A DNA stretch of 64,000 nucleotides from Bacillales bacterium UBA784 (GTDB lineage Bacteria; Bacillota_I; Bacilli_A; RFN20; CAG-288), in contig DBJE01000013.1 of NCBI GenBank assembly GCA_002297045.1, positions 272,509-336,508 of the forward strand. The letters are read 5' to 3'. Each line of letters begins with the position of its first letter. Within the stretch, counting starts at the first letter, position 1. The notes beneath the pieces are model-generated. The model worked only from the letters and a program-made list of their open reading frames with translations, was not told the DNA's origin and searched no databases. Shown here in pieces: positions 6,246-23,701 of the stretch. The translations under genes were made by a program, and so were the position numbers.

Positions 6246-6272
6246 GGCATGACCATTGGAGGTTTATCAGAG

Positions 6273-7841
6273 ATGAAGAAGAATACTTTGCTGTTCAGTT
6301 CTGTTTTAGCTTTAAGTCTGTTTGGCTGTGCACCGCGCGGAGGAAGCCTTTCTTCTGCCTCAGAGAGTACAACTATGCAGCCGTCCGGGACAATTGTAGA
6401 TGGAATCCGTGTTGCCTATTCTAGGCATGGAAGCTACCTTCTCCGTGCCGAAGTCCAGATTCAAAATGAGGTTGCCAAATCTGTACATTTCGATGAGGTC
6501 GTTTTTTCTGCCTCACCGGATTCGAGCGGAAATTCAATCGCCAAGGCAGTTGATCAAAAAGAAGGCGATAACGTCATTGCCTTAACTACGGGAAAAGATG
6601 ATAAGGTAACGACTACTTATTATGCAAAGTACCTCACGGTAAACGGAAAAACCTATACTGCCTCGGTTAGCGAAGGCAAGCTTTTCTATAAAAATGGTGA
6701 CGAAGATTATGATGTCCTTGCCAAAGGATATACAAGCCAACAGGACAGGGCCAAACTTTATCATGTTCTGACCACAAACTATGCCTTTGGTTCCGATAAG
6801 GACGGAAAGGAAATCGAGGGACTTGTGGCTCCGATTTATTCAAAGGCCAGCAATAGTTCCACCTATTGGCCTTCCGGTGTATATGGATTAGGCTGGAAGG
6901 CAAATATTGCCAAGATTGAGAAAGCCCTTGTAGGCAAAGATCTTTCTAAGGTCTCTTCCGACTATAAGAAAGCGTCCGACTCGGCAAAGTCGAAGACTGG
7001 ATTTGTCGACAATGTCGACACCGGTGCCACTATTTCTTCTTTCAAGTCCTATATTACAACAGCCGCAAGTGCATTCACCGGTGAATCCCGTGTCGTTGAA
7101 CAATTCGGATTAGATCATAATAATTGCTTCTCCCGTACTGAACTTGTTGTCGGCGAGGACAATAAGGTTGTCTATGCCAACATCAATGAAACCAATCAAT
7201 TCCTTTCTAGGCTTGCCCAGAGAAATTCCGATACGGGAAACGATGCTCCTATTGTCCGATTCCATACCGATGCGACGGATAAAGCCGAGGAAGTCAACAA
7301 TTATTATTCCCAGTTTGTTTCGGTCAACGGAAAAGTCTGGACCGGAACAGCAAAAGATAAGGCGGCAAGCCGGGAATATGTCACCTATTCTAGCGGAAAC
7401 GATCAAGATGCCCTGGCTTACTATTCTTCCAGTGCCTATTTGGCTAATGAGTACTATAATGCCCAGTTCCTGAATCTGATTTCTATTGCCAAGGATGCCA
7501 ATGGCTCCGCTTCTTCCGACAAGGTGACCTATGGAAACAGGACTGCCACGAAAGCCGAAAACGGAAACAACTATTGGACTACCGGCCATGGTGCACCGGA
7601 AGACAAAAAACCGGATAACTATGCGACTTGGTGGAAATGGAATGTCGCTGCAGTCGAGAATGCCTTTGTCGGACTTGATTTTACAAGTCTGACTAAGGAT
7701 AGTGCGGTCACTTCTCAGACCGCAGATGCTGACGGACACAAGTATGTCTCCATTAACGGGGTTAAGACTGGCGCTTCTAGGAGCGAAACGAAGAGCTATG
7801 TCCAGTTTGCCCATGAAGCGTATGCTTATTTGGTTAAGTAG
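6273..7841 (+). CDS. extracytosolic lipoprotein with two FMN-binding-type modules (PplA-like)
   Basis: ORF 6249..7841. The start is taken at ATG 6273 (MKKNTLLFSSVLALSLFGCAP, lipobox L-F-G-C) with GGAGG 9 nt upstream. There is an internal duplication (YAKYLTVNGKTYTAS / YSQFVSVNGKVWTGT; YWPSG...KIEKALVGKD / YWTTG...AVENAFVGLD). Each half ends in a flavinylation-type motif, VDTGATISS and VKTGASRSE. Confidence 0.65.
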   Translation: MKKNTLLFSSVLALSLFGCAPRGGSLSSASESTTMQPSGTIVDGIRVAYSRHGSYLLRAEVQIQNEVAKSVHFDEVVFSASPDSSGNSIAKAVDQKEGDNVIALTTGKDDKVTTTYYAKYLTVNGKTYTASVSEGKLFYKNGDEDYDVLAKGYTSQQDRAKLYHVLTTNYAFGSDKDGKEIEGLVAPIYSKASNSSTYWPSGVYGLGWKANIAKIEKALVGKDLSKVSSDYKKASDSAKSKTGFVDNVDTGATISSFKSYITTAASAFTGESRVVEQFGLDHNNCFSRTELVVGEDNKVVYANINETNQFLSRLAQRNSDTGNDAPIVRFHTDATDKAEEVNNYYSQFVSVNGKVWTGTAKDKAASREYVTYSSGNDQDALAYYSSSAYLANEYYNAQFLNLISIAKDANGSASSDKVTYGNRTATKAENGNNYWTTGHGAPEDKKPDNYATWWKWNVAAVENAFVGLDFTSLTKDSAVTSQTADADGHKYVSINGVKTGASRSETKSYVQFAHEAYAYLVK

Positions 7842-7908
7842 TTTTTTGCCTTACCATGGTCTCTCCATGGGTCAGGCCTCGTCTAGATATTAAATTGAGG
7901 TGAATCAA

Positions 7909-9213
7909 ATGTTTCATTTATTCCGTTCTGATGAATCCGCCCACATTCCAGGATATAAGGAGCAGACGAGGAATCTTCCTGTCTGCTCCTATGATCCGGA
8001 GTTTGTCTATATTCCCTGTGTGGATAATCATGGTAATCCCCTTATTAACGCCCTTCCAATCTCCTCTTCCGTTAAGAAGGGAACGCTCTTAGGCCTTCGT
8101 GCACCGGATGATTTTCCTATCTATTCTTCCGTCTCCGGAAAAATCGAAGGTAGGCAGAAGAGGGTAAGGTCCTCTGGCAGAATCAGGGATTGCTTTGTTA
8201 TCCGTAACGACCACAAGGGAGAATGGGATACCCTTACTCCCTTAAAGCCGGCAAACGAAGTTTCCAGAGAGGAAATCATCAACGCCATTAAGAAGAGCGG
8301 CGTCATCGGATTTGGCGGAGCAGGTTTTCCTACTTACCGGAAGTTCAATTCCGGTAAGGAATGCGATGTCTTAATCCTTAATGCCATCGAGTGCGAACCT
8401 TTCCTTACTACCGACTATGTCTATGGTGCAAAGGAGTGTGAATATGCCTTCCTTGCCATCCCTTATCTTCTTAAGGCAAGCGGTGCGAAGAAGGTTGTCT
8501 TCTGCACGAAGAAGGATAAGCCTGCCCTTATCGATGCCTGCGGGAAATGGAAGGCGAAGTACCCTTCTCTTCCTGTCGAGCTTGTGTTGGCCAAGGATGC
8601 CTATCCTAGGGGGTATGAGCGCAACCTTGTCACTTTAGTTACCGGCAAGGAGTATGCCCACATTCCGATTGAGGCTCAGGCCATCGTCGACAATATTTTC
8701 ACTTTTATTTCCTTAGGCCGCTACTTCACGGAGGGAAAGAGTGCAGACTTACGTTGCATCACCGTATCCGGTGAAGTAAGCAAACCAAGGAATATTTTGA
8801 CTCCTTATGGAGTCTATGCCTTGGACCTTCTGCAAAGGGCAGGATACAAAAACGATTCGTCTCTTAAGATTTTAAACGGCGGTCCAAGGAACGGAAACGT
8901 CCTTGATGACGAAAAGTTCGTTCTGCTTCAGCAGGCCGATGGGATTACGGTAAGGAAAAAGTCGTCTTACCGGGCAGAGCCCTGCTGGCATTGCGGAAAC
9001 TGCGCGGAAGCCTGCCCTAGGGACCTTCAGCCTGTGCAGATTCAGATGGCCTACAAGGCAAACGATCTTCAGCGCAGGATTGAACTGAATGCCGATAGGT
9101 GCGTAGGATGTGGACTTTGTTCTTATTCCTGCCCAAGCCGGATTGAAGTCAGCCAGCATGTCAGGGCCGCTAAGGCCTTAGTCATCAAGGCGAGGAAGGA
9201 GGCAAAGAAGTAA
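7909..9213 (+). CDS. rnfC: RnfC paralog 1 (electron-transport complex subunit C)
   Basis: GVIGFGGAGFPTY (the NADH/FMN-site motif of RnfC/Nqo1-like proteins). There are two ferredoxin motifs, CWHCGNCAEACP and CVGCGLCSYSCP. ATG 7909 has GAGGTG 8 nt upstream; the track's GTG 7900 is the alternative. Confidence 0.85.
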   Translation: MFHLFRSDESAHIPGYKEQTRNLPVCSYDPEFVYIPCVDNHGNPLINALPISSSVKKGTLLGLRAPDDFPIYSSVSGKIEGRQKRVRSSGRIRDCFVIRNDHKGEWDTLTPLKPANEVSREEIINAIKKSGVIGFGGAGFPTYRKFNSGKECDVLILNAIECEPFLTTDYVYGAKECEYAFLAIPYLLKASGAKKVVFCTKKDKPALIDACGKWKAKYPSLPVELVLAKDAYPRGYERNLVTLVTGKEYAHIPIEAQAIVDNIFTFISLGRYFTEGKSADLRCITVSGEVSKPRNILTPYGVYALDLLQRAGYKNDSSLKILNGGPRNGNVLDDEKFVLLQQADGITVRKKSSYRAEPCWHCGNCAEACPRDLQPVQIQMAYKANDLQRRIELNADRCVGCGLCSYSCPSRIEVSQHVRAAKALVIKARKEAKK

Positions 9214-9217
9214 CATT

Positions 9218-10354
9218 ATGGATTATCCGAAACAGTTTACACCTCATATTCGGAGAAAGGCGTCGACCTTCTCGCAGAGGAGGGAGTTCTTCCTTTGCGT
9301 CTGTGTCCTTTGGATTAGCAGTAGGATTTACTATTTCGTCACTGCCGGAAAAGGATATGGATTAGCCGTCATTCTTCTTGGCATCACCGGAATCGTCTTT
9401 GCCATGATTCCTGATATCTTTTGGAACCTTAGCGTATTCTTCTCCAAAGAACATAAACAGGATGCGTTTAAAGAGTTTCTCTATCGGGTCATTCATTCCT
9501 ATTCCTTTGTCACCGGCCTTCTTCTTGCCTTGCTTTGCCCGATCGGTCTCCCCTTCTGGAAACTTGCCATCGGTGCAGTTCTTTCTGTGCTTGTCTTTAA
9601 GCTGTTCTTTGGCGGATTCGGAAAGAACATCCTCAATCCTGCCATCTTCGGACGTGTCTTCCTTCAGCTTGCTTTTACCAGTGACAGGAAGACGTATCTA
9701 GGACAGAAGCCGGATGATTTCACTATTTCAACCGGTGCTTCCGTTACCGGATTAATCAACAATAAGAACGGTTTCTCTCCAATTGTCAGTGGTCTTTCCT
9801 TTAAGGATAGGATTATCGGCAATTACCGAGGAACCTTAGGCGAAACTTTTATCCTTGTCCTTCTTGCCATCTGCGTTTATCTTTGTGTCCGGAAGATCAT
9901 CGACTGGCGTGTCCCTGTCACTTATATCGGAACCCTTTTTATCGCCTTTGTCCTGATGTTCCTTTCTGCCGGCGACGGCGGCTGGGCGTTCAAGGATGCC
10001 TTTAGGTATCTTGCTATCGGCGGCATCTTCTTCGGCGGTATCCTCTGTCTGACTGATCCGGTCACTTCTCCGACTAGCCGCTCTGGCCGGATGAGGTTTG
10101 CCTTGACTAGTGCCCTTATCACCCTTCTTATCCGTCTTTATACCGGGTCTCCGGAAGGCGTCGCCTATTCCATCCTGATTGCCAATGTGATGACTCCCTT
10201 CTTTGACAAGATCAACACTGGCCGGACAAATAAGAAACTCGTCCCTATTGCCGTCAATGCTTCCCTTTTTGCTCTCGTCCTTCTCTCTGCCCTTGTCTAT
10301 GGGTTTAGGAACAAAATCAATCCTTCTACGGGAAGGTTCCTGAAAGGTAGGTAA
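9218..10354 (+). CDS. rnfD: RnfD paralog 1 (NqrB/RnfD family membrane subunit)
   Basis: Polytopic. Motifs are FGKNILNPAIFGRVF, STGASVTG (covalent-FMN motif position) and LTDPVTSP. Confidence 0.85.
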   Translation: MDYPKQFTPHIRRKASTFSQRREFFLCVCVLWISSRIYYFVTAGKGYGLAVILLGITGIVFAMIPDIFWNLSVFFSKEHKQDAFKEFLYRVIHSYSFVTGLLLALLCPIGLPFWKLAIGAVLSVLVFKLFFGGFGKNILNPAIFGRVFLQLAFTSDRKTYLGQKPDDFTISTGASVTGLINNKNGFSPIVSGLSFKDRIIGNYRGTLGETFILVLLAICVYLCVRKIIDWRVPVTYIGTLFIAFVLMFLSAGDGGWAFKDAFRYLAIGGIFFGGILCLTDPVTSPTSRSGRMRFALTSALITLLIRLYTGSPEGVAYSILIANVMTPFFDKINTGRTNKKLVPIAVNASLFALVLLSALVYGFRNKINPSTGRFLKGR

Positions 10355-10356
10355 AG

Positions 10357-10881
10357 ATGAATCAAAGGTTTAAAAACTGGATTATCGGTGCTTCTGCCGC
10401 CCTTATCCTTGGTGCTGCCTCCGTTGGGCTATATTTCGGAATCGTCCCGGAGAAAAGCCCTCTTTCCGATAATGTGATGAGCAGGTTTGAAAAAGATTCC
10501 CCGACCGGGAGGGACTCTCTTGATCTTTCTTCCCTTTCGGCTGATGATTCAAAAATGATTAAGGAAGCCGATAAAGTCTATCTTTCTTCTTCCTCGGTCT
10601 CTGCCTATTATTTTGGTCTGAGTTCTTATGACGGAAGCTATGGTTCGCTTAACTTTGCTATCGGGGTCAAGGACTCCGTCGTCACCTATTATCATTTCAT
10701 CGATGCCGGAGCGGCGGATGATCTTGGCGCCGGACAGGCCCAGGATAACGAAGGGAAAAGGTTTGTCGGCTACACTCTTGGCGGAGACGATGTCAGGGCC
10801 GGAGCGACAGCCGAAGAGACCTATTCCGATAGGAAAAAGGCGGTCGATGCGGCTCTGACTTTTGTGAAAGGAAGGGATTAA
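10357..10881 (+). CDS. rnfG: RnfG paralog 1 (FMN-binding subunit)
   Basis: 174 aa with an N-terminal TM anchor (WIIGASAALILGAASVGLYF). FMN_bind-type C-terminus with VRAGATAEE. The position between rnfD and rnfE is as expected. Confidence 0.7.
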   Translation: MNQRFKNWIIGASAALILGAASVGLYFGIVPEKSPLSDNVMSRFEKDSPTGRDSLDLSSLSADDSKMIKEADKVYLSSSSVSAYYFGLSSYDGSYGSLNFAIGVKDSVVTYYHFIDAGAADDLGAGQAQDNEGKRFVGYTLGGDDVRAGATAEETYSDRKKAVDAALTFVKGRD

Positions 10882-10883
10882 CG

Positions 10884-11594
10884 ATGTCAACTCTTGAAAA
10901 AACCGGTTTTAAGAAAAGCTTCCTCGACGGACTTTTCTATAAGAATCCGTTCTTTGTCCTCTTTCTCGGTCTGACTCTGGTCAGGATCTCCACGACCCGT
11001 CTTGAGACAGCCCTCATTGTCGGGCTGATTGCCGGAATCGAGCTTAGGGTGACTCAGCTTGTCCTCTCCCTTCTCCGTAAACACCTAGATAAGGTCGGCG
11101 CCTATCTTACCGCCCTTATTCTTGCAGCCGGGCTATCCACCATCTTCGGAATGGTGCTTGGACTTCGTTTCTCCTCTTTCCTGAAATATGTCAACGTCAA
11201 TGGGGCTAACGGAAAGTTTCTGACTATCGCCGTCCCCTTCCTCTGTACCTCTTCGTTCATTCTCGATCAGGCTGACGAATCGCTCTTCCATCCTCTTTCC
11301 GATACCAGGGGCTATTCCCTTGGCTCGTTCCTTGGCTTCCTTGCCGCTTTAATCCTTATTTCCCTCTTCCGCGAAGTTCTTTCTACCGGAAGGATTACCT
11401 TCTATGATGCCAAGGGTCAGGAATACGGACCGATTCTCTGGTCGAAGGACGTGTTCTCCCTTCCGATCCTTGATAAGCCTTTCGGCGGTTTCCTCTTTGC
11501 CGGAGTATTCAGGGGAATCTACCGTTCCATCCTTAACTTAGTCCTTAGCCATAAGGATAAGAAGGAAAAGTCCAAACTGAAGGAGGCTGAGTAA
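10884..11594 (+). CDS. divergent RnfE-like membrane subunit (lacks the GxCP Cys and the NC..LGRAE motif)
   Basis: LDGLFYKNPFFVLFLGL... and the C-terminal LFREVLSTGRITF match the RnfE/NqrD ends, and the operon position fits. The protein has only one Cys (FLCTSS). Confidence 0.6.
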   Translation: MSTLEKTGFKKSFLDGLFYKNPFFVLFLGLTLVRISTTRLETALIVGLIAGIELRVTQLVLSLLRKHLDKVGAYLTALILAAGLSTIFGMVLGLRFSSFLKYVNVNGANGKFLTIAVPFLCTSSFILDQADESLFHPLSDTRGYSLGSFLGFLAALILISLFREVLSTGRITFYDAKGQEYGPILWSKDVFSLPILDKPFGGFLFAGVFRGIYRSILNLVLSHKDKKEKSKLKEAE

Positions 11595-11595
11595 T

Positions 11596-12165
11596 ATGCA
11601 GTTCATCGGTGCAATTCTGACGGCGTTCTTCGCCAAGAACCTGATTCTTCAGGGACATGATCTCCGTGATGGCATCCATCTTGGCAATAGACACTACCCT
11701 CACCGTCTTGTTTTTCTTGGTCTTTATGTCCTAGAATCCCTTGTCATCTCTATCGTCGGATATTTAATCTCCAAATATGGAAAAGGAAGGGAGATCCTTT
11801 CCTATCTTGCTTTCTTTATCTATGCCCTCATCGCCGCCTTAAGGACAGGCCTTTTCTCTCTCGCTTTCAAGAAATTCTTCCCCCAGCTTGAAAAGGAACT
11901 CCATGAAGACTGGATTGAACGTGCCTGCTCGACTGCCTTAATCGCCGTCGGTGCCTCTGCCTTGACCTGGGCTAGCGTCTCTGCGGCGGAAAGGGTAGGA
12001 CTTAGGCTTGCGATGCCTATTGGCTTTGCCCTTTCTTCCTTTGTCTTCTCTGCCCTTTATGAGCGGGTAAGGGAAGATGGAGATGCCAAGGGCTTCCGGG
12101 GAATCCCTCTTCTTCTTCTTTCTTTGGCCGGTGCCTCGCTTGGCGTAGTCAGGAGGAGCTTCTGA
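11596..12165 (+). CDS. divergent RnfA-like membrane subunit
   Basis: The N-terminal FIGAILTAFFAKNLILQG and C-terminal YERVREDG..KGFRGIPLLLLSLAGASL resemble RnfA/NqrE ends. The protein has only one Cys (ERACSTA). Its position is after the rnfE-like gene. Confidence 0.55.
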   Translation: MQFIGAILTAFFAKNLILQGHDLRDGIHLGNRHYPHRLVFLGLYVLESLVISIVGYLISKYGKGREILSYLAFFIYALIAALRTGLFSLAFKKFFPQLEKELHEDWIERACSTALIAVGASALTWASVSAAERVGLRLAMPIGFALSSFVFSALYERVREDGDAKGFRGIPLLLLSLAGASLGVVRRSF

Positions 12166-12223: not shown

Positions 12224-13756
12224 ATGAAAACCAAAATCATCTGTCTGCTTTTTTCCTCTCTTTCCTTTTTCCTTTCTTCTTGCAAGGAAAACAAGGTGGA
12301 AAGAATCGAAACCCTGTCGAATCCCTATCTGTTTTCCACGAAGGGGGAGATACGGATAAACAGCGACGAAAGCCTTTCTCTCTCTCCTTTTGATACTTCC
12401 ATCACCGGAAGCATTTATTATTACGGGGGTGACTTCACGGAAGAAGAACTTGCTTCTATCCATTCTCTTTTTGACTACTCTTTTTCTTATTATCATGCTC
12501 TCTCCGACCGGCATTATTCTTATTCCCGGTATGATGAAAAGGGAAATAAGGCCGAGGAAATCAACAATGTCCGGACAATCAATGAAAGCTACGGTACGGG
12601 AAAAAAGGTAAAAGTTGATTCTTTCCTGTATGACCTACTAAAGAAAAGCTATGAGTTTTCCAGGAACAGCGATGGAAAGTTCAACAGGTTTTTAGGAACG
12701 CTGAACGACCTCTATGAGAATAAGCTTTCCTCTTTGGAAGAGGATGGTTCCTTGGATAGCGAATACAAAAAGAACAGCGTCCTGACCGTCACGACAAAAA
12801 GGAAGTTCTCCTCTTTCTCCGCCAATGAAAAGAACCGGATTTCCTCCCTAGTCTCTTCTCTTCCCCGGACAAAGGAAGAGAGGCAGGGCCTTCTCTCCTT
12901 TGATGATGCAACCTCTTCCGTCACCTTCAACAAATACAAGGACACGAAGAACCTGGAAATTTCCCTCGGGGGAAATGCCAAAGGATATGCCACGGAAAGG
13001 TTCTGCCGGCAGAGGCAGAAGGAATATCCTAATAGGTCCCTTGTCATCAATTCCGGCTCTTCTTCCATCAAGGCAATCGGACAGCGGCCGGACAAACGGG
13101 AATGGAAGATCCAGTATACGAACCCTTGCTATAAGGAAAGTATCGATCTTAGCCGGTACAATCCTTATGAAGTGGTGATTTCCCATAATGGGGCTTTTAA
13201 CCTCTCCACTTCCGGATATTACGAGCAGTATTTCTACTCTTATCTTCCGGACGGAGAGGGCGTTTATGATCCTAATTCTCCCTTTATCCTAAACAGCCAT
13301 ATTCTTAATCCTTCCACTGGGTATTCCACAAGGACGTTCGACCAGGTGTCCGTGTTTCTTAATGACACAGGCCTTGCCGATAGGTACACGACTGCCCTTA
13401 GGAACACTTCTTCCATTAAGGAGGCAGAAGCGCTCTTTGCTTCCCTCAATAAGATTTATTCTGTTTCCGATGCCGGGCTTAGGCTATGCCTTAAGGAAAA
13501 GGACGGCTCCCCTTATTTTTATAAAAGGTCGGACTACTCTCCTCTTCAGAGTAACGGGCTTCCCTGCATTAAAACTGCCAAGGGGGAGTATAGCGGAGAC
13601 TTTTCCGACCTTGACGAAGCACCGCAGGAATACCTCTCCCGATATGTCTCCTCCTTTGAGGAGGTCTATTACCTTACCGGCAATAGGAGGGAGAAGGCTT
13701 CCATGACGGAAGAGAACGGGAAACAAGTGATTTCCCGACTGGAGGAACTGAAATGA
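12224..13756 (+). CDS. apbE: ApbE-family FAD:protein FMN transferase, lipoprotein (copy 1)
   Basis: MKTKIICLLFSSLSFFLSSCKE is a lipobox signal peptide. ApbE motifs present are GGNAKGYATE, INSGSSSI, HILNPSTGYS and GLADRYTTAL. Confidence 0.8.
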   Translation: MKTKIICLLFSSLSFFLSSCKENKVERIETLSNPYLFSTKGEIRINSDESLSLSPFDTSITGSIYYYGGDFTEEELASIHSLFDYSFSYYHALSDRHYSYSRYDEKGNKAEEINNVRTINESYGTGKKVKVDSFLYDLLKKSYEFSRNSDGKFNRFLGTLNDLYENKLSSLEEDGSLDSEYKKNSVLTVTTKRKFSSFSANEKNRISSLVSSLPRTKEERQGLLSFDDATSSVTFNKYKDTKNLEISLGGNAKGYATERFCRQRQKEYPNRSLVINSGSSSIKAIGQRPDKREWKIQYTNPCYKESIDLSRYNPYEVVISHNGAFNLSTSGYYEQYFYSYLPDGEGVYDPNSPFILNSHILNPSTGYSTRTFDQVSVFLNDTGLADRYTTALRNTSSIKEAEALFASLNKIYSVSDAGLRLCLKEKDGSPYFYKRSDYSPLQSNGLPCIKTAKGEYSGDFSDLDEAPQEYLSRYVSSFEEVYYLTGNRREKASMTEENGKQVISRLEELK

Positions 13757-15354
13757 AAAAATCCGCTTTGCTTATTCTCTCTCTTGGCTTTGTCCTTTCC
13801 GGATGCCAAAACGGGAGGAAGGGTTCCTCCTTGTCTTCTTCCCCCTCTTCCTCCCTTCGCCCACAGGAGGATGAAAAAGTGTTTTCCAGGCAGACCATCT
13901 ATATCGGAATCGCTTCCGGCGATATCCGTGTCGTCCCTCCTAGCGAGAACAGCACAAGGGTCGGAGTGAGTCCGTTTAATACATCCATCCAGGGGAAGGT
14001 CTACTATTATGAAGGCGACTATTTCGACGATGACCTTAACGTCATCGCCGAGGATTTTAACTCCCTCTTCTCTCTTTACCATGCCTTAAGCGATAACCAC
14101 TACAACTATAAAGAGGTGACAAAGCGGGATGACAGGGGCAACGCCTTGGAAAGGAAAGACATCGTCAATGTCAAGTACATCAATGATCACCCGGGAGAAA
14201 GGATACAGGTTGATCCCTTCCTTTATGATTTATTGAAGCGGAGCTATGACTTCACCCTGAATTCTTCTTTGATGTTCAATAGGTTCTCCGAGAGTCTCTC
14301 TTCTCTTTATGAGGACAAACTCTCCGAAGACGAATATTCGGGAAAGGCCCTAAACAAGGCTTTCTCCCTCTCAAGGAATGTCCGGTTCAAGGACGATTTT
14401 TCCCCGTCGGATATTCAAAACGCCCTGCTTAGCGTTCCGGAAAGTAAAGAGGAAGCAAAAGGCTGCCTCACCTTTGACGAAGAAAAGAAAGCCGTCCGGC
14501 TGAATAAGAGGGTAAAGGACGGGAAGGAATATACTCCGAGAAGGAATCTCGGGGGATGCGCGAAGGGATTTGCGACTAAGGCGGTCGCCGATTATTTTAA
14601 GGGTCTCTATCCGGACATTTCCCTTAGGATCAACTCCGGCTCTTCCTCCATCCTTGCCGTAGGGAGCCGGCCGGATTCTTTGCCGTGGAAAATCACCTAT
14701 GTCAATCCGATTAGCCATGAAAGAATCAACCAAGGCGGAACAAACCCAAGCGAGCTTTATCTTCAGTTCAAAGGTCCCTTCAACAGGTCGACATCCGGAT
14801 ATTACGAACATTATTTTTATTGTTATGACCCACAGAAGAAGGAAATCTTCCGGAGAGACCATATCTTCAATACGGAAAACGGTTTTTCCGCTCCCTTCTT
14901 CGACCAGGTCTCCGTCCTTTTGGACGATGCCGGGCTTGCCGACAGGTATACCACGGCGATAAGGAACTGCAAGGGGACAGAGGAAGCATTTGCCCTGTTT
15001 GACCGCCTGAACAAGGTCTATTCCACCTCGGGGGAACTATTGGTCTGTTATAAGGGAGAGAAAGGAAACGAGGATAGTCTTTATAGCTATTCTCTTTCGG
15101 ACAGGTCTCCCTTATCCTCTCTAGGATACCCAATCTCCATTCTCAATGACGGAAGCGAATATGACGGTGACTACCTTGATGTTTCCCTTTCGGATATCAA
15201 AGACACGAAGACAAAAAGCAAGTATCGGTTTTCCGAGGTCTACCTAAGGAGCGGGAAGAGGTATCAGGCAAGCCATCTCTTCACGGAAAAGAATGATACG
15301 TTCTTCCCTTATCCGGACAAGGCAATCTCCGTCAGAAAAGAACATAAAGGATAA
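13753..15354 (+). CDS. apbE: ApbE-family FAD:protein FMN transferase, lipoprotein (copy 2)
   Basis: There is an ATGA overlap with copy 1 and GGAGGA upstream. MKKSALLILSLGFVLSGCQN has a lipobox. Motifs are GGCAKGFATK, INSGSSSI, HIFNTENGFS and GLADRYTTAI. It is clearly paralogous to copy 1 (shared SPF(D/N)TSI.G..YYY.GD...). Confidence 0.8.
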   Translation: MKKSALLILSLGFVLSGCQNGRKGSSLSSSPSSSLRPQEDEKVFSRQTIYIGIASGDIRVVPPSENSTRVGVSPFNTSIQGKVYYYEGDYFDDDLNVIAEDFNSLFSLYHALSDNHYNYKEVTKRDDRGNALERKDIVNVKYINDHPGERIQVDPFLYDLLKRSYDFTLNSSLMFNRFSESLSSLYEDKLSEDEYSGKALNKAFSLSRNVRFKDDFSPSDIQNALLSVPESKEEAKGCLTFDEEKKAVRLNKRVKDGKEYTPRRNLGGCAKGFATKAVADYFKGLYPDISLRINSGSSSILAVGSRPDSLPWKITYVNPISHERINQGGTNPSELYLQFKGPFNRSTSGYYEHYFYCYDPQKKEIFRRDHIFNTENGFSAPFFDQVSVLLDDAGLADRYTTAIRNCKGTEEAFALFDRLNKVYSTSGELLVCYKGEKGNEDSLYSYSLSDRSPLSSLGYPISILNDGSEYDGDYLDVSLSDIKDTKTKSKYRFSEVYLRSGKRYQASHLFTEKNDTFFPYPDKAISVRKEHKG

Positions 15355-15451: not shown

Positions 15452-17755
15452 ATGAAAAATTTAAAGCTGTTGACTCTTCTTTCCCTCATTCCTGTTTTCT
15501 CTCTGGCTGGCTGTAAAGGCAATGCCGGGAGCGATTCTTCGTCTGTTTCTTCCTCTGTGCCGGAACAGACTTCTTCCTCCTCTAACGGCAGCCACGAGAT
15601 TTCCCCGGATCCCTATGCCCAGGTCCTGGACGGACTGGATAAGACGAAGGATGTCTTCCGGGATCAGTATAGGCAAACCCATACCTATCTTGGCGGATAT
15701 ACCGAGACGGTGAACGGAGTCAAGGTCTCCTATGGCTGGATCGAGTATACAAGCACCTGGGGAACCTACGGCGTCGCGGTCAAACTGACCATCACCGCCG
15801 AAGGAAAGATTAAGGAAATCAAGCTTGGTGCTCCGGATAAGGACGTCCACAACTTCACTCCGTCCTATGGACAGACTTCCGGGTACGATATTTATAACGA
15901 TTATATTGCCAACTATGAGAAGAATCTGAACGCGGCCTTCGCCAATAAATCGGTCAGGAACGCCTTTAATTCCCTTAAGGACGCTATCTGCGAACCGAAC
16001 CTTAAGCCGACGGAAACAGACAGCGGCACCTTCACCCCATCCAAGAATGATCCGACCGTCAAGGCCGGTGCCACCCAGACGGCAGCCCGCACGGAACGTG
16101 CCATTTTTGCCGCCGCCGGCGCCTATCTTAGCGAGTACAATCCAAACGCCCGCATCTTTGCCCATGTCTATAACAACCTAAAGGCAGAGGATAGGCCTAC
16201 CGATAACAATGTTTCGTTAGGCTATAGGAAGACCACGGACGGAAGTTATGGCTATGCTAGGTATCAGTCCTGGGGCAGCTACTATGGTGCCGCCGTCAAA
16301 ATCAAGGTCAAGGCAAACAACGTCATCGACCATGTCTATTTAGGAACCCCAAGGAAAGGCGCCCATAACTTCACTCCCTGGTACGCTGTCTCCGATCCGA
16401 ATAATTTCATTGAGTTCTACCAGAAGGCCGAAGAACTGGTCAACAACCAGCTTGTCGGCAAGGTGGTGAATGAACAGCTGAGGAATAAGTACAAGTCTGC
16501 CACGCTTGAACCTGGAACCTCTACCTTTACACCGGCTGAAACGATTCTTTCTGCCGGTGCGACACAGACCAATGTCCGTCTGGATCGTGCCATCGCCTCC
16601 GCTAGGGAAGGCATCCTTTCCTCTGTGGAAGCTAAACCGGATGAGGGCGGAGTGGTCGACGAAGTCCTCCCTGGTGCCGACACTATTTCCGGATCGGAAA
16701 TTTATGCCTCCTACAACCATCTTAAATCCGATTATGTCACCCCTGAGGAAAATCAGAACGGATACTATAATGCCCAGACGATGACTGCCTATGGCTGGAG
16801 GCGTTATGAGAATCCCTGGTCCAAGGGCAGCTATTATGGTGCCGCCGTTTCTCTGACCTTTGACAAGAATAAGAACATCACTGATGTCAAAGTCGGTGTC
16901 TCCCAAAAAGGCGATGTCAATAGGACGACAATCTACCGTGCCCACTATGATTCCGACCCACTTTATCTAGATAACTATGCACAGTATTTGATTCAGGATA
17001 GGAAGGCTGCCTTAAGCGGGAAGACCGCAGCCGATGTCTATAAATCCACACTCTCTGCCGGCGTGGAAAATAATGACGGCAATCTTATCTTCACTCCTGG
17101 CGACTATGACTTCCTTGGCGCTGGTGCCACGCAGACGACTAGCCGAATCAATGTCGCCCTCTTCGAGGCGGCCTCTGCCTATAGGCTTGCCACTGATCCC
17201 TTCACAAAGAATGTGTTTGAGGATTTAAAGCTTGTCAAAGGAACGGACATCAAGGACAACACCTTCCACCAGGGCGGAAAGAAAGGCACGGATTCAAAAA
17301 CCGGTACCGCTTATGTCTATGGCTATACCGTTTACTACATCTCGTCCTGGCAGAGCTACTATGGTGCAGCCGTCAAGCTTACTTATGATAGCGACAGGAA
17401 GATTACGGCTGTAGAGACCGGAGAACCGAAAATTGAGGATTCCGCTAAGTCTTGGGCCGCCGCGACGAACTTCACCGCAAGTTATACCTTCACTTCTACC
17501 TCTTCCCGCAGTGACTATCTAAAGTATTACACGACCATCAAGGAGGAAATCGATAAAGCCCTTATCGGAAAGACCATCAACGAAGAACTTGCCCAGCAGT
17601 TTGCTGCCGCCAAGGTCGAATTCGATCCGAATGACAGTGAGAAGAACACCTATACTCCTGCTTCTGTCCGCTTCGTCGGAGCAGGTGCCACGCAGACTGA
17701 TACCCGTGTCGCTGCTTCTATCTATGGTGCCCTTCAGGCTGCCCTGAAAAAGTAA
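15452..17755 (+). CDS. lipoprotein with four tandem FMN-binding-type modules, each with a GATQT flavinylation motif
   Basis: MKNLKLLTLLSLIPVFSLAGCKG has a lipobox. There are four ~170-190-aa repeats of the pattern ...Y.S.WG.YG(A/V)AVK(L/I)....I..(I/V)..G.P....HNFTP.Y......FTP...(A/G)GATQT..R...A. The Thr codons of the four GAT motifs are at 16073-75, 16562-64, 17129-31 and 17690-92. Confidence 0.7.
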   Translation: MKNLKLLTLLSLIPVFSLAGCKGNAGSDSSSVSSSVPEQTSSSSNGSHEISPDPYAQVLDGLDKTKDVFRDQYRQTHTYLGGYTETVNGVKVSYGWIEYTSTWGTYGVAVKLTITAEGKIKEIKLGAPDKDVHNFTPSYGQTSGYDIYNDYIANYEKNLNAAFANKSVRNAFNSLKDAICEPNLKPTETDSGTFTPSKNDPTVKAGATQTAARTERAIFAAAGAYLSEYNPNARIFAHVYNNLKAEDRPTDNNVSLGYRKTTDGSYGYARYQSWGSYYGAAVKIKVKANNVIDHVYLGTPRKGAHNFTPWYAVSDPNNFIEFYQKAEELVNNQLVGKVVNEQLRNKYKSATLEPGTSTFTPAETILSAGATQTNVRLDRAIASAREGILSSVEAKPDEGGVVDEVLPGADTISGSEIYASYNHLKSDYVTPEENQNGYYNAQTMTAYGWRRYENPWSKGSYYGAAVSLTFDKNKNITDVKVGVSQKGDVNRTTIYRAHYDSDPLYLDNYAQYLIQDRKAALSGKTAADVYKSTLSAGVENNDGNLIFTPGDYDFLGAGATQTTSRINVALFEAASAYRLATDPFTKNVFEDLKLVKGTDIKDNTFHQGGKKGTDSKTGTAYVYGYTVYYISSWQSYYGAAVKLTYDSDRKITAVETGEPKIEDSAKSWAAATNFTASYTFTSTSSRSDYLKYYTTIKEEIDKALIGKTINEELAQQFAAAKVEFDPNDSEKNTYTPASVRFVGAGATQTDTRVAASIYGALQAALKK

Positions 17756-17769
17756 AAGGCGAAAAGCAA

Positions 17770-19077
17770 ATGATTAGGAAGACTAAAGTACTTCAGGGAA
17801 GGATGAGAGTGTCTACCGAGCCGACCATCTCGCTTAAGCTCCCTCCCTTCCTTTATATCGAAGCGACGAATGCAAACTGTCCGAAGGCCGACATCTATGT
17901 CCAGCCTGGCGATCAGGTCAAGCTTTACCAGGTTATCGGAAGGCGGCACGGGAAAGGGTTTGACTTACCTATCCATGCCACCTGTTCGGGAACCTATTCC
18001 GGACTGGAAAAGCATTACTATCGGAACGGGAAAAGGGTCGAGTTCAGGAAGATCGAGAACGATGGAAAGGATACTTCTGATCCCGGCTTTGGAAAAGAGC
18101 GTTCCGATGAGGAAGTCTCAAACCTCACCAAAAAGGACAGGGCCGAAATCTTGAAAAACACCGGCTCTGTCGGACTTGGCGGCTCCTGCTATCCTACTTA
18201 TCTCCGTTTTGAATCCGATAAGAAAATCGATACCATCCTGGTTAATGCCGTAGAAAGCGAGCCCTTTGTCTCTGCTGACCATACTCTTGCCCTTGATGAA
18301 AGGGAAAGCGTCATCAAGGGGACAAAGTTACTTAGGCAGGCTTTCTCCTGCCCTAAGGCGGTAATCTGCTTCAAGAAGAAAGACCAAGACCTGCTCCAGG
18401 CCTATGGACAATATCTTTCGGCAAACCAGACTTCTGCCATTTCGGCTAGGACAGTAAGCAATGACTATCCTCAGGGATGGGAGAACGCTCTTGTCAAATC
18501 CGTTACCGGGAAAGTCATCCCTCTAGGTCATCTTCCTAGGGAATACGGAGTCAGGAACTTCAATATTGCCACGGTTGTCAGCATCTATAACGCCATCAAA
18601 TATAACCTTCCTACCATCGAACGTCTGGTTTCCGTTTCCGGCAACGGCGTAAGGAATCCTGCAAACGTGAAGGTCCGAGTCGGTGCTCCGGTCAAATACG
18701 TGATTGCCGCCTGCGGAGGTTATAGCCTTGGCGCAAAGAAGGTTCTTGTTCTTGGCGGCCCTAGGTCGGGGACTTCCCTTCCTAGCGATGATGCCATTGT
18801 CACTAGGGACGTTCCTTCTATCCTCGTCTTCAATGATAAGAAGGTGAAAGTCTCACCTTGCATCCGCTGCGGATCCTGTGTGATGTCCTGTCCTGTCGGC
18901 CTTCAGCCGGTTACCATCAGGAACACGAGGAACACAAGGCCTGTCGACCGGGAAAAAATTAAGCTTCTCCATCCTCAGGATTGCATCGGCTGCGGCCTAT
19001 GCTCCTATTCCTGCACGAGCCATATCGATGTCATGTCTTCCGTCGCCCGTGCCAAAGTCATTGCGAGGTTAAAGTAA
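17770..19077 (+). CDS. rnfC: RnfC paralog 2
   Basis: GSVGLGGSCYPTY. Ferredoxin motifs are CIRCGSCVMSCP and CIGCGLCSYSCT. It is collinear with paralog 1. Confidence 0.85.
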   Translation: MIRKTKVLQGRMRVSTEPTISLKLPPFLYIEATNANCPKADIYVQPGDQVKLYQVIGRRHGKGFDLPIHATCSGTYSGLEKHYYRNGKRVEFRKIENDGKDTSDPGFGKERSDEEVSNLTKKDRAEILKNTGSVGLGGSCYPTYLRFESDKKIDTILVNAVESEPFVSADHTLALDERESVIKGTKLLRQAFSCPKAVICFKKKDQDLLQAYGQYLSANQTSAISARTVSNDYPQGWENALVKSVTGKVIPLGHLPREYGVRNFNIATVVSIYNAIKYNLPTIERLVSVSGNGVRNPANVKVRVGAPVKYVIAACGGYSLGAKKVLVLGGPRSGTSLPSDDAIVTRDVPSILVFNDKKVKVSPCIRCGSCVMSCPVGLQPVTIRNTRNTRPVDREKIKLLHPQDCIGCGLCSYSCTSHIDVMSSVARAKVIARLK

Positions 19078-19078
19078 T

Positions 19079-20224
19079 ATGGAATTCGTCAAAGTTAGTG
19101 GTCCCTTTATCCGCCGGAAGGATTCGGTCTCCCGGAGGATGCTGGATGTTTTAATCGCTCTTCTTCCTGTCGTCATCGCTGCCTTTGTCTACTATCCTAT
19201 CCCTGCCCTTCGCAACATCTCCCTTTCCATTTTGACAAGGTTACTCTGTGAACTTGTCTTTGTCCTGATTTATCATCGCATTCCTTATGACGGAGAGAAG
19301 CACACCTTTAAACAGTGGTGGGATAATTTTAGAAAGTCTTTTACCCTCAATAACATTACGGTTCCTCTTGTCTCGGGTGTCATTTATGGCTTAAGGAGGC
19401 CTGTTGCCACAAAAGACAATCCCAATTTCATCTACTATCCGCTTATCATCGGAGCAATTTTCGGCAGGGTGATTGGTAAGCTTATCTTCGGCGGAACAGG
19501 AAAGAACATCTTCAATCCTGCCCTTGTCGGTTGGGTCTTCGCCAAACTCTGCTTTGGAAGCCATTACGATTATCCTTCTGCCAGTAAGTTCCTCTCCAAT
19601 GAAATCTTCACTGGTGCGACAAGCCTTGACCCTTCCCATTTCTCCCTTGCCAATAAGGTCTATTCCATCAATTCCTCTGCCCTGCTCGACAGGTTCCTCG
19701 GAAAGAGGACCGGCCTTGTCGGAGAGACCTGTAAAATCGCCATCCTTGTCGGGCTTGTCTATCTTATCGTCCGTCATACGATTGACTGGCGTATTCCGGC
19801 TAGGTACCTTGGAACGGTCGCCTTTAGGTCACTGATTCTCGGCACCATCATTTTCGGGGCCAACAAGTCCACTCTTTCTGCTTCCTATCCTTTTGTCTTC
19901 AGGACCTACCAGCTTTTAAGCGGCGGCTTACTCTTTGGGGCGGTCTTCAGGGCGACGGATCCCGTCACTTCCCCGCTCACCCATCCTGACCGTCTGATCT
20001 ATGGCGCCTTCCTTGGCGTCTGCACGAGGATCATCCGTCTTTTCGGTTCCCTTCCGGAAGGTACTGCCTTCTCGATTCTGATGGGCAATGCCCTGACTCC
20101 GGTCATCGGCTACTATAAATGGTCGACTACCCGATATACCTGGAAGAATCTGACCCTGCTTGCTTCAGTCATCCTCGTTCCGACCCTGATTAGGATCTGG
20201 GCAGGATGCAGGAGGGTTTTCTAA
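19079..20224 (+). CDS. rnfD: RnfD paralog 2
   Basis: Motifs are GTGKNIFNPALVGWVF, FTGATSLDP (covalent-FMN motif) and F(AGG)ATDPVTSP. Confidence 0.85.
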   Translation: MEFVKVSGPFIRRKDSVSRRMLDVLIALLPVVIAAFVYYPIPALRNISLSILTRLLCELVFVLIYHRIPYDGEKHTFKQWWDNFRKSFTLNNITVPLVSGVIYGLRRPVATKDNPNFIYYPLIIGAIFGRVIGKLIFGGTGKNIFNPALVGWVFAKLCFGSHYDYPSASKFLSNEIFTGATSLDPSHFSLANKVYSINSSALLDRFLGKRTGLVGETCKIAILVGLVYLIVRHTIDWRIPARYLGTVAFRSLILGTIIFGANKSTLSASYPFVFRTYQLLSGGLLFGAVFRATDPVTSPLTHPDRLIYGAFLGVCTRIIRLFGSLPEGTAFSILMGNALTPVIGYYKWSTTRYTWKNLTLLASVILVPTLIRIWAGCRRVF

Positions 20225-21675: not shown

Positions 21676-22476
21676 ATGATTGCGGATAAAAATGTTTCGG
21701 CTGTCAGCCAGCCTAGTGAAATGCCGGCAAAGAAAGCAAAACCGAAGAGCGAATCCTCTCTTCGCCATAAGGCTGCCTTTGTCACCGGTATCTTTAAGAA
21801 CAACCCACTCTTCGTCGCCGTTTTAGGAACCTGCCCGGCCTTAGCCGTCACGACCTCCTTGGAGGTTGCCCTTGGCATGGGCCTTCTCTTCACCTTCGTC
21901 CTTGTCTGTTCCAACGTTCTGATTTCCGCCCTTCGTAAGCTCATCCCCGAGGAAATCGAGATTCCTGCCTATATCGTCATCATCGCCGCCTTTGTGACCG
22001 TCGTCAAAAGGAGGACGAACGCCTTCATACCGGAACTGTACTCCTCCCTTGGCGTCTTTCTTTCCCTGATTGTCGTCAACTGCGTCGTCCTTGGGCGGGC
22101 AGAGGCTTTTGCCAAATATAACGGAGTCCTTGACTCCCTTCTTGACGGCCTTGGAAACGGCATCGGCTATACTCTGGCCATTTCTATCATCGGCCTCATC
22201 CGGGAAATCCTCGGCTCTGGTTCCATCACAATCGGCAAGGTCTTTACCTTTATCCATGGAAGCAACAATAGTCCTATTGTCCTTCCGATTCTGAAAGGGA
22301 CCGGATACGACTTCTCCATGTCCGTCTTTACCAATGCCGCAGGCGGCTTTATCGTCTTCGGTCTTGTCTTATTTATCATCAACATCATCACCATGCATAA
22401 GAACAACAAAAAGAAATTCGCCAGGAAGAAGGCTAGGCTCACCGCCGCCTCTCTTAGCGGAAAGAAAGGAGCCTAA
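21676..22476 (+). CDS. rnfE: RnfE paralog 2 (canonical)
   Basis: FKNNPLFVAVLGTCPALAVTTSLE and LGVFLSLIVVNCVVLGRAEAFA are hallmark RnfE/NqrD motifs, with both conserved Cys present. Confidence 0.85.
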   Translation: MIADKNVSAVSQPSEMPAKKAKPKSESSLRHKAAFVTGIFKNNPLFVAVLGTCPALAVTTSLEVALGMGLLFTFVLVCSNVLISALRKLIPEEIEIPAYIVIIAAFVTVVKRRTNAFIPELYSSLGVFLSLIVVNCVVLGRAEAFAKYNGVLDSLLDGLGNGIGYTLAISIIGLIREILGSGSITIGKVFTFIHGSNNSPIVLPILKGTGYDFSMSVFTNAAGGFIVFGLVLFIINIITMHKNNKKKFARKKARLTAASLSGKKGA

Positions 22477-22481
22477 GGAAT

Positions 22482-23120
22482 ATGTCTCAGGCCACACCTT
22501 ACATCGTAACCTTCCTGCTTGCCATTCTGACGGACAGGCTCGTCAATAACGTCGTCCTCAGCCGTTTCTACGGAATCTGCGCCTTTATGGGCGTATCGAC
22601 GAAGGTCAAGAACTCCCTTTCGATGGGACTTGCCGTCGTCTTCGTCATCGTCCTTGCTTCCTTAATCTGTTGGCCGCTTTACTACTTCGTCCTTGTCCCC
22701 TGCCAGATCACCTTCAGGGATACCCTTACCTACATCTTAGTCATTGCCTCCCTTGTCCAGATTGTCGGAAGGTTCATCAAGAAGTTCTCTCCTTCCCTCT
22801 ATAAGGCATTTGGTATCTATCTCCCCTTGATTACGACAAACTGTGCCGTCCTTGGCGTCGTACAGGAGAACACCGCTGTTGCCCTTGAGGCAAATGCCAC
22901 TGCCCTTGAAAGGGCCCAGAACTTCGGTAAGTGCAGGGCAAATGCCCTAGGTACCTCTCTTGGCTACCTCATCAGGATTGTCATCTTCGCCTGTATCCGC
23001 GAGCGGAGGAAGGAGAACACTTCTTCGACTCCTAAGGCCCTTCGGGGAACGGCAGAAGCCCTGATTGTCGCCGGAATCATGGCGATTGCCATCATGGGCT
23101 TAAGGGGAATCGGTGCTTAA
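22482..23120 (+). CDS. rnfA: RnfA paralog 2 (canonical)
   Basis: NNVVLSRFYGICAFMGVSTK and YLPLITTNCAVLGV are hallmark RnfA/NqrE motifs with both conserved Cys. The C-terminal ACIRER motif is also present. Confidence 0.85.
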   Translation: MSQATPYIVTFLLAILTDRLVNNVVLSRFYGICAFMGVSTKVKNSLSMGLAVVFVIVLASLICWPLYYFVLVPCQITFRDTLTYILVIASLVQIVGRFIKKFSPSLYKAFGIYLPLITTNCAVLGVVQENTAVALEANATALERAQNFGKCRANALGTSLGYLIRIVIFACIRERRKENTSSTPKALRGTAEALIVAGIMAIAIMGLRGIGA

Positions 23121-23379
23121 ACTACTTCTTTCCCGGCCTTTGCAGATCACTTTCGGCATTCTCTTTGTCCTTCTTCTTGTCGGTGTGTTTCTTCTTGTCT
23201 GTGTCCTCAACCACCGCACACCGGTTCCGAAAGGATGCGAGAAGCTAAGACCGGATGCCAATCAGTGTGCAGGCTGTCAGCTCTTCTCTTCCTGTCCGAT
23301 CCATCGTGTTCCGGACAAGGAGACGAAGCCTCAGAAAAAGAACAGGGCTGAAACTAAGGAGAAAAAAGATCATGAATAA
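23113..23379 (+). CDS. small membrane-anchored Cys-rich protein (88 aa)
   Basis: GTG start overlapping the rnfA stop, with AAGGGG 6 nt upstream. It has one TM helix (ITFGILFVLLLVGVFLLVCVL), then C-x9-C-x2-C-x5-C (GCEKLRPDANQCAGCQLFSSCP), then a Lys-rich tail. The function is unknown. Confidence 0.45.
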   Translation: MLKLLLSRPLQITFGILFVLLLVGVFLLVCVLNHRTPVPKGCEKLRPDANQCAGCQLFSSCPIHRVPDKETKPQKKNRAETKEKKDHE

Positions 23380-23701
23380 ATACGTAATTGCTTTAATCGC
23401 CCTTGCCGTGCTCCTTTTCATCGGAGCCATCCTTGGCGTCCTTCTCACGATTGCAAGCAAGACGCTTGCGGTGAAGGAAGATCCTCGGATCAAGGTCGTG
23501 GAAAGCAGGCTTCCGAATGCAAACTGCGGAAACTGCGGATATCCCGGCTGCCATGAACTTGCCGCTGCCCTTGTCTCCGGTGAGGAGACGAAGGTCACGA
23601 AGTGCAAGGTCGGGAACAAGGAAAAGAACTTCATTCCGATTATCAACTATCTTAAGGAACACCCGGGAGAAGACGGCAATAGCCACGTTCCTAGTCTGTA
23701 A
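23372..23701 (+). CDS. rnfB: RnfB-like protein, N-terminal module only (TM anchor plus Cys-cluster domain, no polyferredoxin domains)
   Basis: The start is taken at ATG 23372 (AAGGAG upstream) within ORF 23255..23701. MNKYVIALIALAVLLFIGAILGVLL... LPNANCGNCGYPGCHELAAALVSGEETKVTKCKVG matches the RnfB N-terminal Fe-S motif (LP..NCG.CG..GC..(Y/L)A.A...G......C). The protein ends after 109 aa. Confidence 0.7.
   Translation: MNKYVIALIALAVLLFIGAILGVLLTIASKTLAVKEDPRIKVVESRLPNANCGNCGYPGCHELAAALVSGEETKVTKCKVGNKEKNFIPIINYLKEHPGEDGNSHVPSL

Follow-up and report, generated by a model that had tools for sequence, protein, structure and literature searches.

What is the role of a lipid-anchored protein that carries the same presumptive flavin attachment motif four times and is encoded at the head of an rnf operon? 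This question is raised by a 64,000-nucleotide (nt) stretch of contig DBJE01000013.1 from Bacillales bacterium UBA784, hereafter the window, in which the gene at positions 15,452 to 17,755 encodes a lipoprotein of 767 amino acids (aa). A preliminary description of the window had read this protein as four tandem modules that bind flavin mononucleotide (FMN), each with a GATQT motif at which an ApbE-type flavin transferase would attach the cofactor, and had suggested that the four flavins relay electrons over distance. The evidence described below makes it very probable that the lipoprotein is a four-domain, FMN-bind-type substrate of ApbE.

The gene is a single open reading frame (ORF), and the protein is a lipoprotein as described. 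The N-terminus, MKNLKLLTLLSLIPVFSLAGC, is a typical lipoprotein signal with an L-A-G-C lipobox, of which the cysteine is Cys21; across 10 homologs Cys21 is invariant, and Leu18 and Gly20 are nearly so. Four collinear repeats of 163-189 aa follow, which can be aligned over their full length with pairwise identities of 29-36% and 29 invariant columns, in agreement with the four modules that had been claimed. GATQT is found at aa 206-210, 369-373, 558-562, and 745-749, in every repeat as AGATQT, and the four Thr codons lie exactly where the preliminary description had placed them (Table 1). The two upstream blocks that it listed as conserved, W(G/Q)(T/S)YYGAAVK and HNFTPxY, hold in two modules each. 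Modules 2 and 4 match WxSYYGAAVK exactly, with WGTYGVAVK in its place in module 1 and SKGSYYGAAVS in module 3; only modules 1 and 2 have a perfect HNFTPxY, which is replaced by VNRTTIY in module 3 and TNFTASY in module 4. The four-fold repetition of GATQT is confirmed as real and not a product of chance.

The relationship of these modules to known FMN-binding domains emerges from a chain of profiles. A word-indexed search of 5.8 billion proteins with the lipoprotein returned 11 clusters, none with a Pfam domain, and the family is rare and unannotated. When the 24-module alignment of the lipoprotein family (A2) was used as a hidden Markov model (HMM) in an exhaustive search of 1.84 billion representatives, only 71 proteins were found at E<=1e-3. 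These proteins form a gradient that runs from four-module proteins of 767-828 aa, which share the architecture of the lipoprotein, through about a dozen two-module proteins (377-431 aa) and a one-module form to distant multi- and single-domain lipoproteins. Distant A2 matches are positive for Pfam FMN_bind in the same regions, including P0024 (E 2.4e-15), P0025 (6.3e-14), and P0032 (3.4e-14). A second alignment, A4, consists of 16 single-domain TGATQ[S/T] lipoproteins and contains no sequence from the family in the window; 15 of its 16 members match Pfam FMN_bind. Comparison of A2 with A4 by hhalign gave a probability of 99.1% (E 7e-19), and an HMM made from A4 alone detects all four modules with E values of 1e-12 to 1e-16 (for module 1 the E value is 2.5e-15, against a domain E of 1e-59 with the A2 HMM). 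Because this profile chain passes through Pfam-positive proteins, it is well supported that the modules are remote, extended members of the FMN_bind superfamily. The FMN_bind-type modules proposed earlier are thus upheld as remote homologs, by way of the profile chain and not by a direct Pfam match.

Direct comparisons weigh against this identification. The preliminary description had proposed scoring each module against Pfam FMN_bind (PF04205), yet no isolated module gave a match at E<=10, and none was found for the whole lipoprotein at E<=0.1; the lipoprotein lies below the 22-bit gathering score that defines membership of the Pfam family. Searches of NCBIfam with the whole lipoprotein and with each module returned nothing relevant. 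Searches of PDB sequences with phmmer and hmmsearch produced only chance matches to antibodies, and Foldseek searches of the PDB with the module and full-length models described below yielded nothing at E<=0.001, and the 50 best matches to either model included no structure of FMN_bind, NqrC, or RnfG. The A4 profile placed the FMN_bind entries 8P2A, 8P2B, and 3O6U among its top eight PDB matches, at E values (0.27-0.41) that are not significant. The motif itself is also atypical. The canonical ApbE motif is D-x-x-[S/T]-G-A-[S/T] (PMC12052999); all four modules keep G-A-T, but the Asp at position -6 is absent and Ala occupies position -3.

The lack of the canonical Asp and Ser/Thr, together with the missing Pfam match and the failure of Foldseek to find flavinylated domains, would also fit modules that are not ApbE substrates at all. 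Such modules could have an FMN_bind-derived fold that holds a flavin or another ligand non-covalently, or could be structural or adhesive, with GATQT used for helix capping or for ligand binding. The conservation of the motif makes this very unlikely. G-A-T and the Thr at +2 are kept in essentially all homolog modules, the exceptions being one G-A-S and one G-G-T, and the +2 Thr is invariant across the 24 modules of A2. Homologs often have Thr at position -3 where the modules in the window have Ala. Furthermore, mutation of the Asp to Ala in an ApbE motif is described as having minor effects only, in a study cited in a review (PMC12052999). The presence of two ApbE genes and an eetB-type gene nearby also argues against a non-substrate, as does the restriction of the motif within the window, where no [STAG]GA[TS] was found in four other lipoprotein-like ORFs that served as an internal control (2,519 aa in total). 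Given the four retained G-A-T sequences, the Thr at -3 in homologs, and the minor effect of the Asp-to-Ala mutation, flavinylation of the four Thr residues is plausible. As far as the motif can be judged, its noncanonical form lowers the claim of the modules to membership among ApbE substrates without excluding that function. The two ApbE lipoproteins encoded upstream are long (510 and 533 aa), and may be adapted to the A-G-A-T variant of the motif.

A Gln at +1 of the acceptor is also found in the proteins P0034-P0072, represented by alignment A4. These are single-domain lipoproteins of ~160 aa with a TGATQ[S/T]xxR signature, and they form a clade with only low scores against Pfam FMN_bind. 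It seems that GATQ is the hallmark of a broader FMN_bind subfamily that is poorly annotated.

Structure prediction provides a further view of the modules. The AlphaFold2 (AF2) model of module 2, for which the module alignment served as input, has a predicted local distance difference test (pLDDT) score of 88.8 and a predicted template modelling (pTM) score of 0.88. In order, this model contains four beta-strands, three helices (short, long, and short), two short strands, and a long helix at the end. The corresponding last helices of the full-length model span residues 208-229, 371-389, 560-580, and 744-765, and none begins more than three residues from its acceptor Thr. Thr72 of SaFMN3-D2 and Thr67 of CbFMN4-D1 have the same placement at the start of a helix in crystal structures, in which the +2 Thr hydrogen-bonds the flavin (PMC10339131). 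The order of elements and the position of the Thr in the AF2 models agree with the crystal description of FMN_bind, an antiparallel beta-sheet and then helices, of which the last has the Thr at its N-terminus, but Foldseek retrieved no structure of this kind. The best Foldseek match was to IscU (E 0.024; template modelling score 0.33-0.51), and this likeness was judged to be a generic similarity between small alpha+beta proteins and rejected.

The full-length model speaks less favorably for a fixed relay of electrons along the protein. Its pTM is 0.50 and the linker between modules 2 and 3 is disordered (aa 398-431), with pLDDT below 50 at residues 398-402 and 413-431, both of which count against such an arrangement. 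Modules 1 and 2 abut directly, as do modules 3 and 4, while ~35 low-confidence residues separate module 2 from module 3; a low-confidence segment also occurs at the junction of modules 1 and 2 (aa 231-235). As a result, neither the relative placement of the two-domain units nor a fixed chain of flavins is predicted, and the model gives no support to the rigid flavin wire that had been suggested. In NqrC and RnfG, tethered domains are known to move. By analogy, such movement would be an equally good way of passing electrons as a rigid wire.

The pairing of the modules is also reflected in their history. A neighbor-joining tree groups the modules of different species by their position in the protein, from which it follows that these species diverged after the four-module state had arisen. 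A deeper split separates modules 1 and 3 and the first module of the two-module proteins from modules 2 and 4 and the second module of the two-module proteins. This grouping, with which the linker layout agrees, indicates that a two-domain A-B unit was duplicated to give A-B-A'-B'. At the DNA level, repeats are detectable only in a ~36-nt stretch that encodes GATQT and a ~33-nt stretch that encodes SYYGAAV. Since DNA-level repeats are confined to these motif-coding stretches of ~35 nt, a recent repeat expansion is ruled out, and the earlier claim of an old duplication is sustained by the clustering by position across species and by how little repetition remains in the DNA.

The genes around the lipoprotein suggest what it may be connected to. 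Two ApbE genes lie immediately upstream, and rnfC begins 14 nt past the stop codon of the lipoprotein gene. The order of an ApbE-sized ORF, the four-module gene, rnfC, rnfD, an rnfG of ~500 aa, rnfE, and rnfA recurs in five related loci, with identities as low as 39%. These loci come from four GTDB genomes of uncultured gut Bacilli, which are metagenome-assembled genomes (MAGs) labelled "Mollicutes", and from the contig of the 39%-identical P0009; Pfam confirmation of the gene identities is limited to L008/L009 (the contigs of P0009), the comparison with the GTDB loci being one of ORF sizes and their order. In all five the four-module gene is the first gene of the rnf operon. The ApbE-2 position is occupied in all related loci by an ORF of 536-548 aa, which is a Pfam-confirmed ApbE in L008/L009. 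All that is known of this lineage, a gut anaerobe, comes from MAGs, and relatives of the neighboring proteins carry the name Candidatus Enterosoma.

The gene after rnfD encodes an elongated RnfG-like subunit with three internal repeats. Module 1 of this subunit has an invariant G-A-T-F, and module 2 has AGPT here and GAT in the homologs of L004 and L008. The motif of module 3 is AGAS here and AGAS, AGSS, AGAT, or SGST depending on the homolog. From these motifs, the product looks like a divergent, multi-flavinylated RnfG. On the other side of the ApbE genes, the window contains an EetB-like gene of family PF07456, the eetB family of FAD-exporting S components of energy-coupling factor (ECF) transporters (PMC9973259), FAD being flavin adenine dinucleotide. 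Next to it lies a NusG_II-domain gene, and co-localization of eetA with eetB has been reported, the pair being associated with FAD export to ApbE (PMC9973259).

The favored reading of these data is a flavinylated outlet of Rnf. The protein would be lipid-anchored and extracytosolic, with two two-domain units, A-B and A'-B', joined by a linker, and with its acceptors Thr208, Thr371, Thr560, and Thr747 each in a G-A-T-Q-T at the N-terminus of the last helix of a domain. FAD would be supplied by the nearby EetB-type ECF exporter, and ApbE-1 and ApbE-2 would transfer FMN from FAD to the four Thr residues. The lipoprotein would be co-transcribed with rnfCDGEA(B), would accept electrons from the flavins of the unusual three-module RnfG on the outer side of the membrane, and would hand them to an acceptor in the envelope or outside the cell, the electrons deriving ultimately from ferredoxin or from reduced nicotinamide adenine dinucleotide (NADH). 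With the direction of electron flow from Rnf to the outside included, the balance tips slightly towards this full statement. Against it stand a two-module relative, P0010 (L005 664-2573), that is linked to neither rnf nor apbE, and the absence from the window of any terminal reductase or acceptor gene, the remainder being housekeeping genes and unannotated lipoproteins. The neighbors of P0010 at L005 664-2573 are a convergent Flavin_Reduct gene (PF01613) and a GGDEF gene.

The missing acceptor gene bears on two other roles that retain the flavins. In one, the lipoprotein is an integral accessory of the Rnf of this lineage, in which the flavins serve its internal electron loop at the outer face, for example by buffering or shuttling electrons between RnfA/E and RnfD beside the three-module RnfG, or carry external electrons inward, with no export over long distance. 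This would accommodate not only the lack of an acceptor in the neighborhood, but also the first-gene position in all five related rnf operons and the highly aberrant RnfG homologs, none of which matches Pfam FMN_bind. However, a complete RnfG-like subunit with a conserved GAT is still present, and two-module relatives occur away from rnf. In addition, the 30-aa Ser-rich tether and the 35-aa linker between the pairs suggest reach from the membrane and not a fixed subunit, and an accessory role is accordingly unlikely. In the other, the protein buffers redox state or scavenges oxygen at the cell surface, where its reduced covalent flavins would react with dioxygen, other oxidants, or quinones and so protect a strict anaerobe, with no defined chain of electron transfer to a respiratory acceptor. 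SaFMN3 is reoxidized by dioxygen (PMC10339131), and both the gut-anaerobe lineage, represented by MAGs alone, and the want of a dedicated acceptor nearby would be in keeping with a protective function. Retention across species of four position-specific modules with ~30% mutual identity argues instead for distinct roles of the sites and against a bulk loading with flavin, which leaves the buffer quite unlikely.

A stronger form of the outlet reading can also be formulated. The four-flavin lipoprotein would dock on the three-module RnfG, so that at least seven covalent flavins (that of RnfD, two or three on RnfG, and four on the lipoprotein) would make up a conduit, through which Rnf electrons from ferredoxin or NADH would pass directly to extracellular acceptors. 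This proposal is tentative and, at present, doubtful. The four sites, which are position-specific and diverged, might have graded potentials.

Table 1. Features of the window that relate to the four-module lipoprotein and the surrounding flavin-associated genes (TM, transmembrane).
Feature	Positions	Strand	Evidence
EetB-like ECF-S component, putative FAD exporter	4130..4666	-	Pfam PF07456 E 6.9e-29
NusG_II-domain membrane protein by eetB, putatively EetA-like	4672..5220	-	Pfam PF07009 E 3.5e-9
Second lipoprotein, two internal repeats each ending [S/T]GA[T/S], precedes rnf operon 1	6273..7841	+	repeat E 4e-16
rnf operon 1 (C, D, short G-like, E, A)	7900..12165	+	Pfam; RnfD1 STGAS motif
RnfG-like protein of operon 1, 174 aa, N-terminal TM helix, C-terminal VRAGATAEE	10357-10881	+	no Pfam/NCBIfam match
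ApbE-1 lipoprotein flavin transferase, 510 aa	12224..13756	+	Pfam ApbE E 5.6e-28; lipobox LSSC
ApbE-2 lipoprotein flavin transferase, 533 aa, directly upstream of four-module gene	13753..15354	+	Pfam ApbE E 1.1e-16; lipobox LSGC
Four-module lipoprotein gene	15452..17755	+	single ORF, 767 aa, translation read
Signal peptide, aa 1-21, lipobox L-A-G-C	15452..15514	+	read from sequence
Ser-rich flexible tether, aa 22-50	15515..15601	+	S-rich low complexity; pLDDT <50 over residues 1-46
Module 1 (type A), aa 51-229, Thr208 at 16073-16075	15602..16138	+	HMM matches
Module 2 (type B), aa 230-392, Thr371 at 16562-16564	16139..16627	+	A4 HMM E 5.9e-15; AF2
Inter-pair linker (aa ~393-431) and module 3 (type A', to aa 581), Thr560 at 17129-17131	16628..17194	+	A4 HMM E 6.2e-16
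Module 4 (type B'), aa 582-767, Thr747 at 17690-17692	17195..17752	+	A4 HMM E 1.6e-12
rnfC (operon 2)	17770..19077	+	Pfam Complex1_51K, RnfC_N, SLBB, Fer4
rnfD (operon 2), FTGAT flavinylation motif	19079..20224	+	Pfam NQR2_RnfD_RnfE E 7.5e-72
Elongated three-module RnfG-like subunit, 482 aa	20225..21673	+	weak TIGR01947 rnfG match at N-terminus; three internal repeats
rnfE and rnfA (operon 2)	21676..23120	+	Pfam Rnf-Nqr E 2.4e-60 and 4.7e-46
Minimal RnfB-like protein, TM helix and PF04060 FeS domain	23255..23701	+	Pfam FeS E 3.5e-12; likely start Met40 (23372)

Several features of the surrounding genes are recorded for completeness. ApbE-1 and ApbE-2 are tandem paralogs far longer than the 266-position Pfam ApbE model, and their reading frames overlap by 4 nt (13753-13756). 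In L001 and L002, too, the eetB/NusG_II pair precedes the ApbE genes. Typical RnfB proteins carry ferredoxin-type 4Fe-4S domains. The RnfB-like product of 23255-23701 has none, and a 110-aa counterpart is found in L008. The unannotated lipoprotein-like ORFs at 25900-28017, 34911-36545 (minus strand), 42732-44714, and 44863-46695 encode proteins of 544-705 aa with Ser/Pro-rich tethers; these four have no Pfam match and no GA[TS] motif. Scans for promoters and terminators were uninformative, with promoter-like counts at background level.

A second lipoprotein and a second rnf operon lie upstream of the ApbE genes, in an arrangement that mirrors that of the main lipoprotein and its rnf operon. 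The preliminary description had credited this second lipoprotein with two more FMN modules. An internal repeat and a motif in each half are indeed present, as both halves have [S/T]GA[T/S] and a helix-like segment that are conserved in 10 homologs, but no homology to FMN_bind was detected with Pfam, the A2 and A4 HMMs, or hhalign (probability <10%). That it adds two FMN modules is a reasonable but unproven reading of its sequence. Neither of the two RnfG-like subunits has a Pfam FMN_bind match, and comparison of both with the modules (A2 and A4 HMMs, hhalign) gave no significant result. The first rnf operon has no rnfB. The unit of 6249-12165, which consists of the two-motif lipoprotein and rnfCDGEA, sits between a TMEM164-like gene and ApbE-1. 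At the syntenic position in L001 and L002 it is absent, and an eetA/eetB-like pair is followed there by one short ORF and then by two ApbE genes. This absence suggests that a whole lipoprotein-Rnf module has been gained or lost.

Proteins with multiple flavins have been studied before. "Multi-flavinylated proteins" were described by Meheust et al. (2021), who counted 2,081 such proteins with up to 13 domains and proposed them as flavin counterparts of multihaem cytochromes; Rnf clusters with a multi-flavinylated RnfG were proposed as likely electron branches to external acceptors (PMC8238504). The features by which that study recognized them, namely more than one FMN domain, a signal or lipidation site, and an ApbE in the cluster (PMC8238504), are represented here by four modules, a lipobox, and two ApbE genes. 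Having no Pfam match, the lipoprotein would have escaped the Pfam-based census of PMC8238504. Three- and four-FMN proteins have since been produced and characterized by Tong et al. (2023; PMC10339131), and two- and four-domain FMN-bind2 proteins have been reported. The multi-flavinylated concept is therefore already published, and the lipoprotein adds a Pfam-invisible member to it (PMC8238504, PMC11334425, PMC10339131).

The closest description is that of FMN-bind2 (Huang et al., 2024). According to PMC11334425, FMN-bind2 is a domain of ~160 aa with insertions between beta1 and beta2 and between beta3 and alpha1, found by BLAST and not by Pfam, which typically occurs in two or four copies paired through their beta-sheet faces. 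Compared by description only, the lipoprotein fits FMN-bind2 in size, copy number, Pfam invisibility, and inferred pairing. Its modules are 163-189 aa against ~160 aa, and the copy number is even in both, with four modules here and two in the relatives of 377-431 aa. Pfam misses both, BLAST or profile searches are needed to find them, and both come from Bacilli-type Firmicutes. The domains also appear to work as pairs in both, as here there is no linker within pairs and the ancestry is A-B-A'-B'. With regard to the insertions, the model has four long strands and extra helices, against three strands and two helices in crystal structures of FMN-bind1. In the intermediate proteins, the 77 positions of Pfam FMN_bind are spread over 100-115 residues. 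An example of FMN-bind2, NTW96865.1 from an Erysipelotrichaceae bacterium (Table S1 of PMC11334425), was looked for among the named cluster members and was not found. A difference is that the passages of PMC11334425 consulted make no mention of a fixed place at the head of an rnf operon whose RnfG has three modules.

SaFMN3 and CbFMN4 (PDB 8P2A/8P2B) resemble the lipoprotein in being extracytosolic with three or four ApbE-type FMN domains. However, the domains of those two proteins are compact at ~85 aa, share over 80% identity, and are connected by flexible linkers as beads on a string (PMC10339131). SaFMN3 has a single potential, at -184 mV. The modules of the lipoprotein are twice as large, ~30% identical, position-specific, and fused in pairs.

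PplA of Listeria monocytogenes is reportedly a two-domain protein, as Light et al. are said to have found in 2018. Like the protein in the window it is a lipoprotein with multiple domains, which are flavinylated by ApbE/FmnB in PplA and are predicted to be flavinylated here, and eetB- and eetA-type genes are nearby in both. Unlike PplA, which receives electrons from Ndh2 via demethylmenaquinone, the present lipoprotein is encoded in an rnf operon; it also has four modules of an extended subtype instead of two, and no sequence-level match between the two was obtained. The ORFs scanned from 4.1 to 23.7 kb include no membrane type-II NADH dehydrogenase (Ndh2). Where PMC8238504 recognizes PplA-type extracellular electron transfer by a cluster with a type-II NADH dehydrogenase, the cluster here comprises rnfCDGEA(B), apbE, and an eetB-like gene. 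RnfG and NqrC share with the lipoprotein an extracytosolic FMN_bind-type domain, a G-A-T acceptor, and, in this locus, an rnf operon. However, they have one domain and an N-terminal transmembrane anchor, whereas the lipoprotein has four domains and a lipid anchor. A separate RnfG-like subunit is encoded at 20225-21673.

The family offers a clean setting for genetic tests, as a four-site protein is encoded together with its presumed flavin transferases, a putative FAD exporter, and a presumed electron source, Rnf. Because the four sites have diverged according to their position, in contrast to the nearly identical domains of SaFMN3 and CbFMN4, any grading of their potentials, and with it a direction of flow, could be measured. 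The locus also indicates that some of the flavinylated proteome escapes censuses built on Pfam, since the lipoprotein, both RnfG-like subunits, and the second lipoprotein are all FMN_bind-negative. Ultimately, if the proposed conduit of seven or more flavins is real, this small-genome fermentative lineage of gut Bacilli would possess a purely flavin-based, Rnf-driven form of extracellular electron transfer, by a route distinct from the Ndh2/quinone/PplA pathway.

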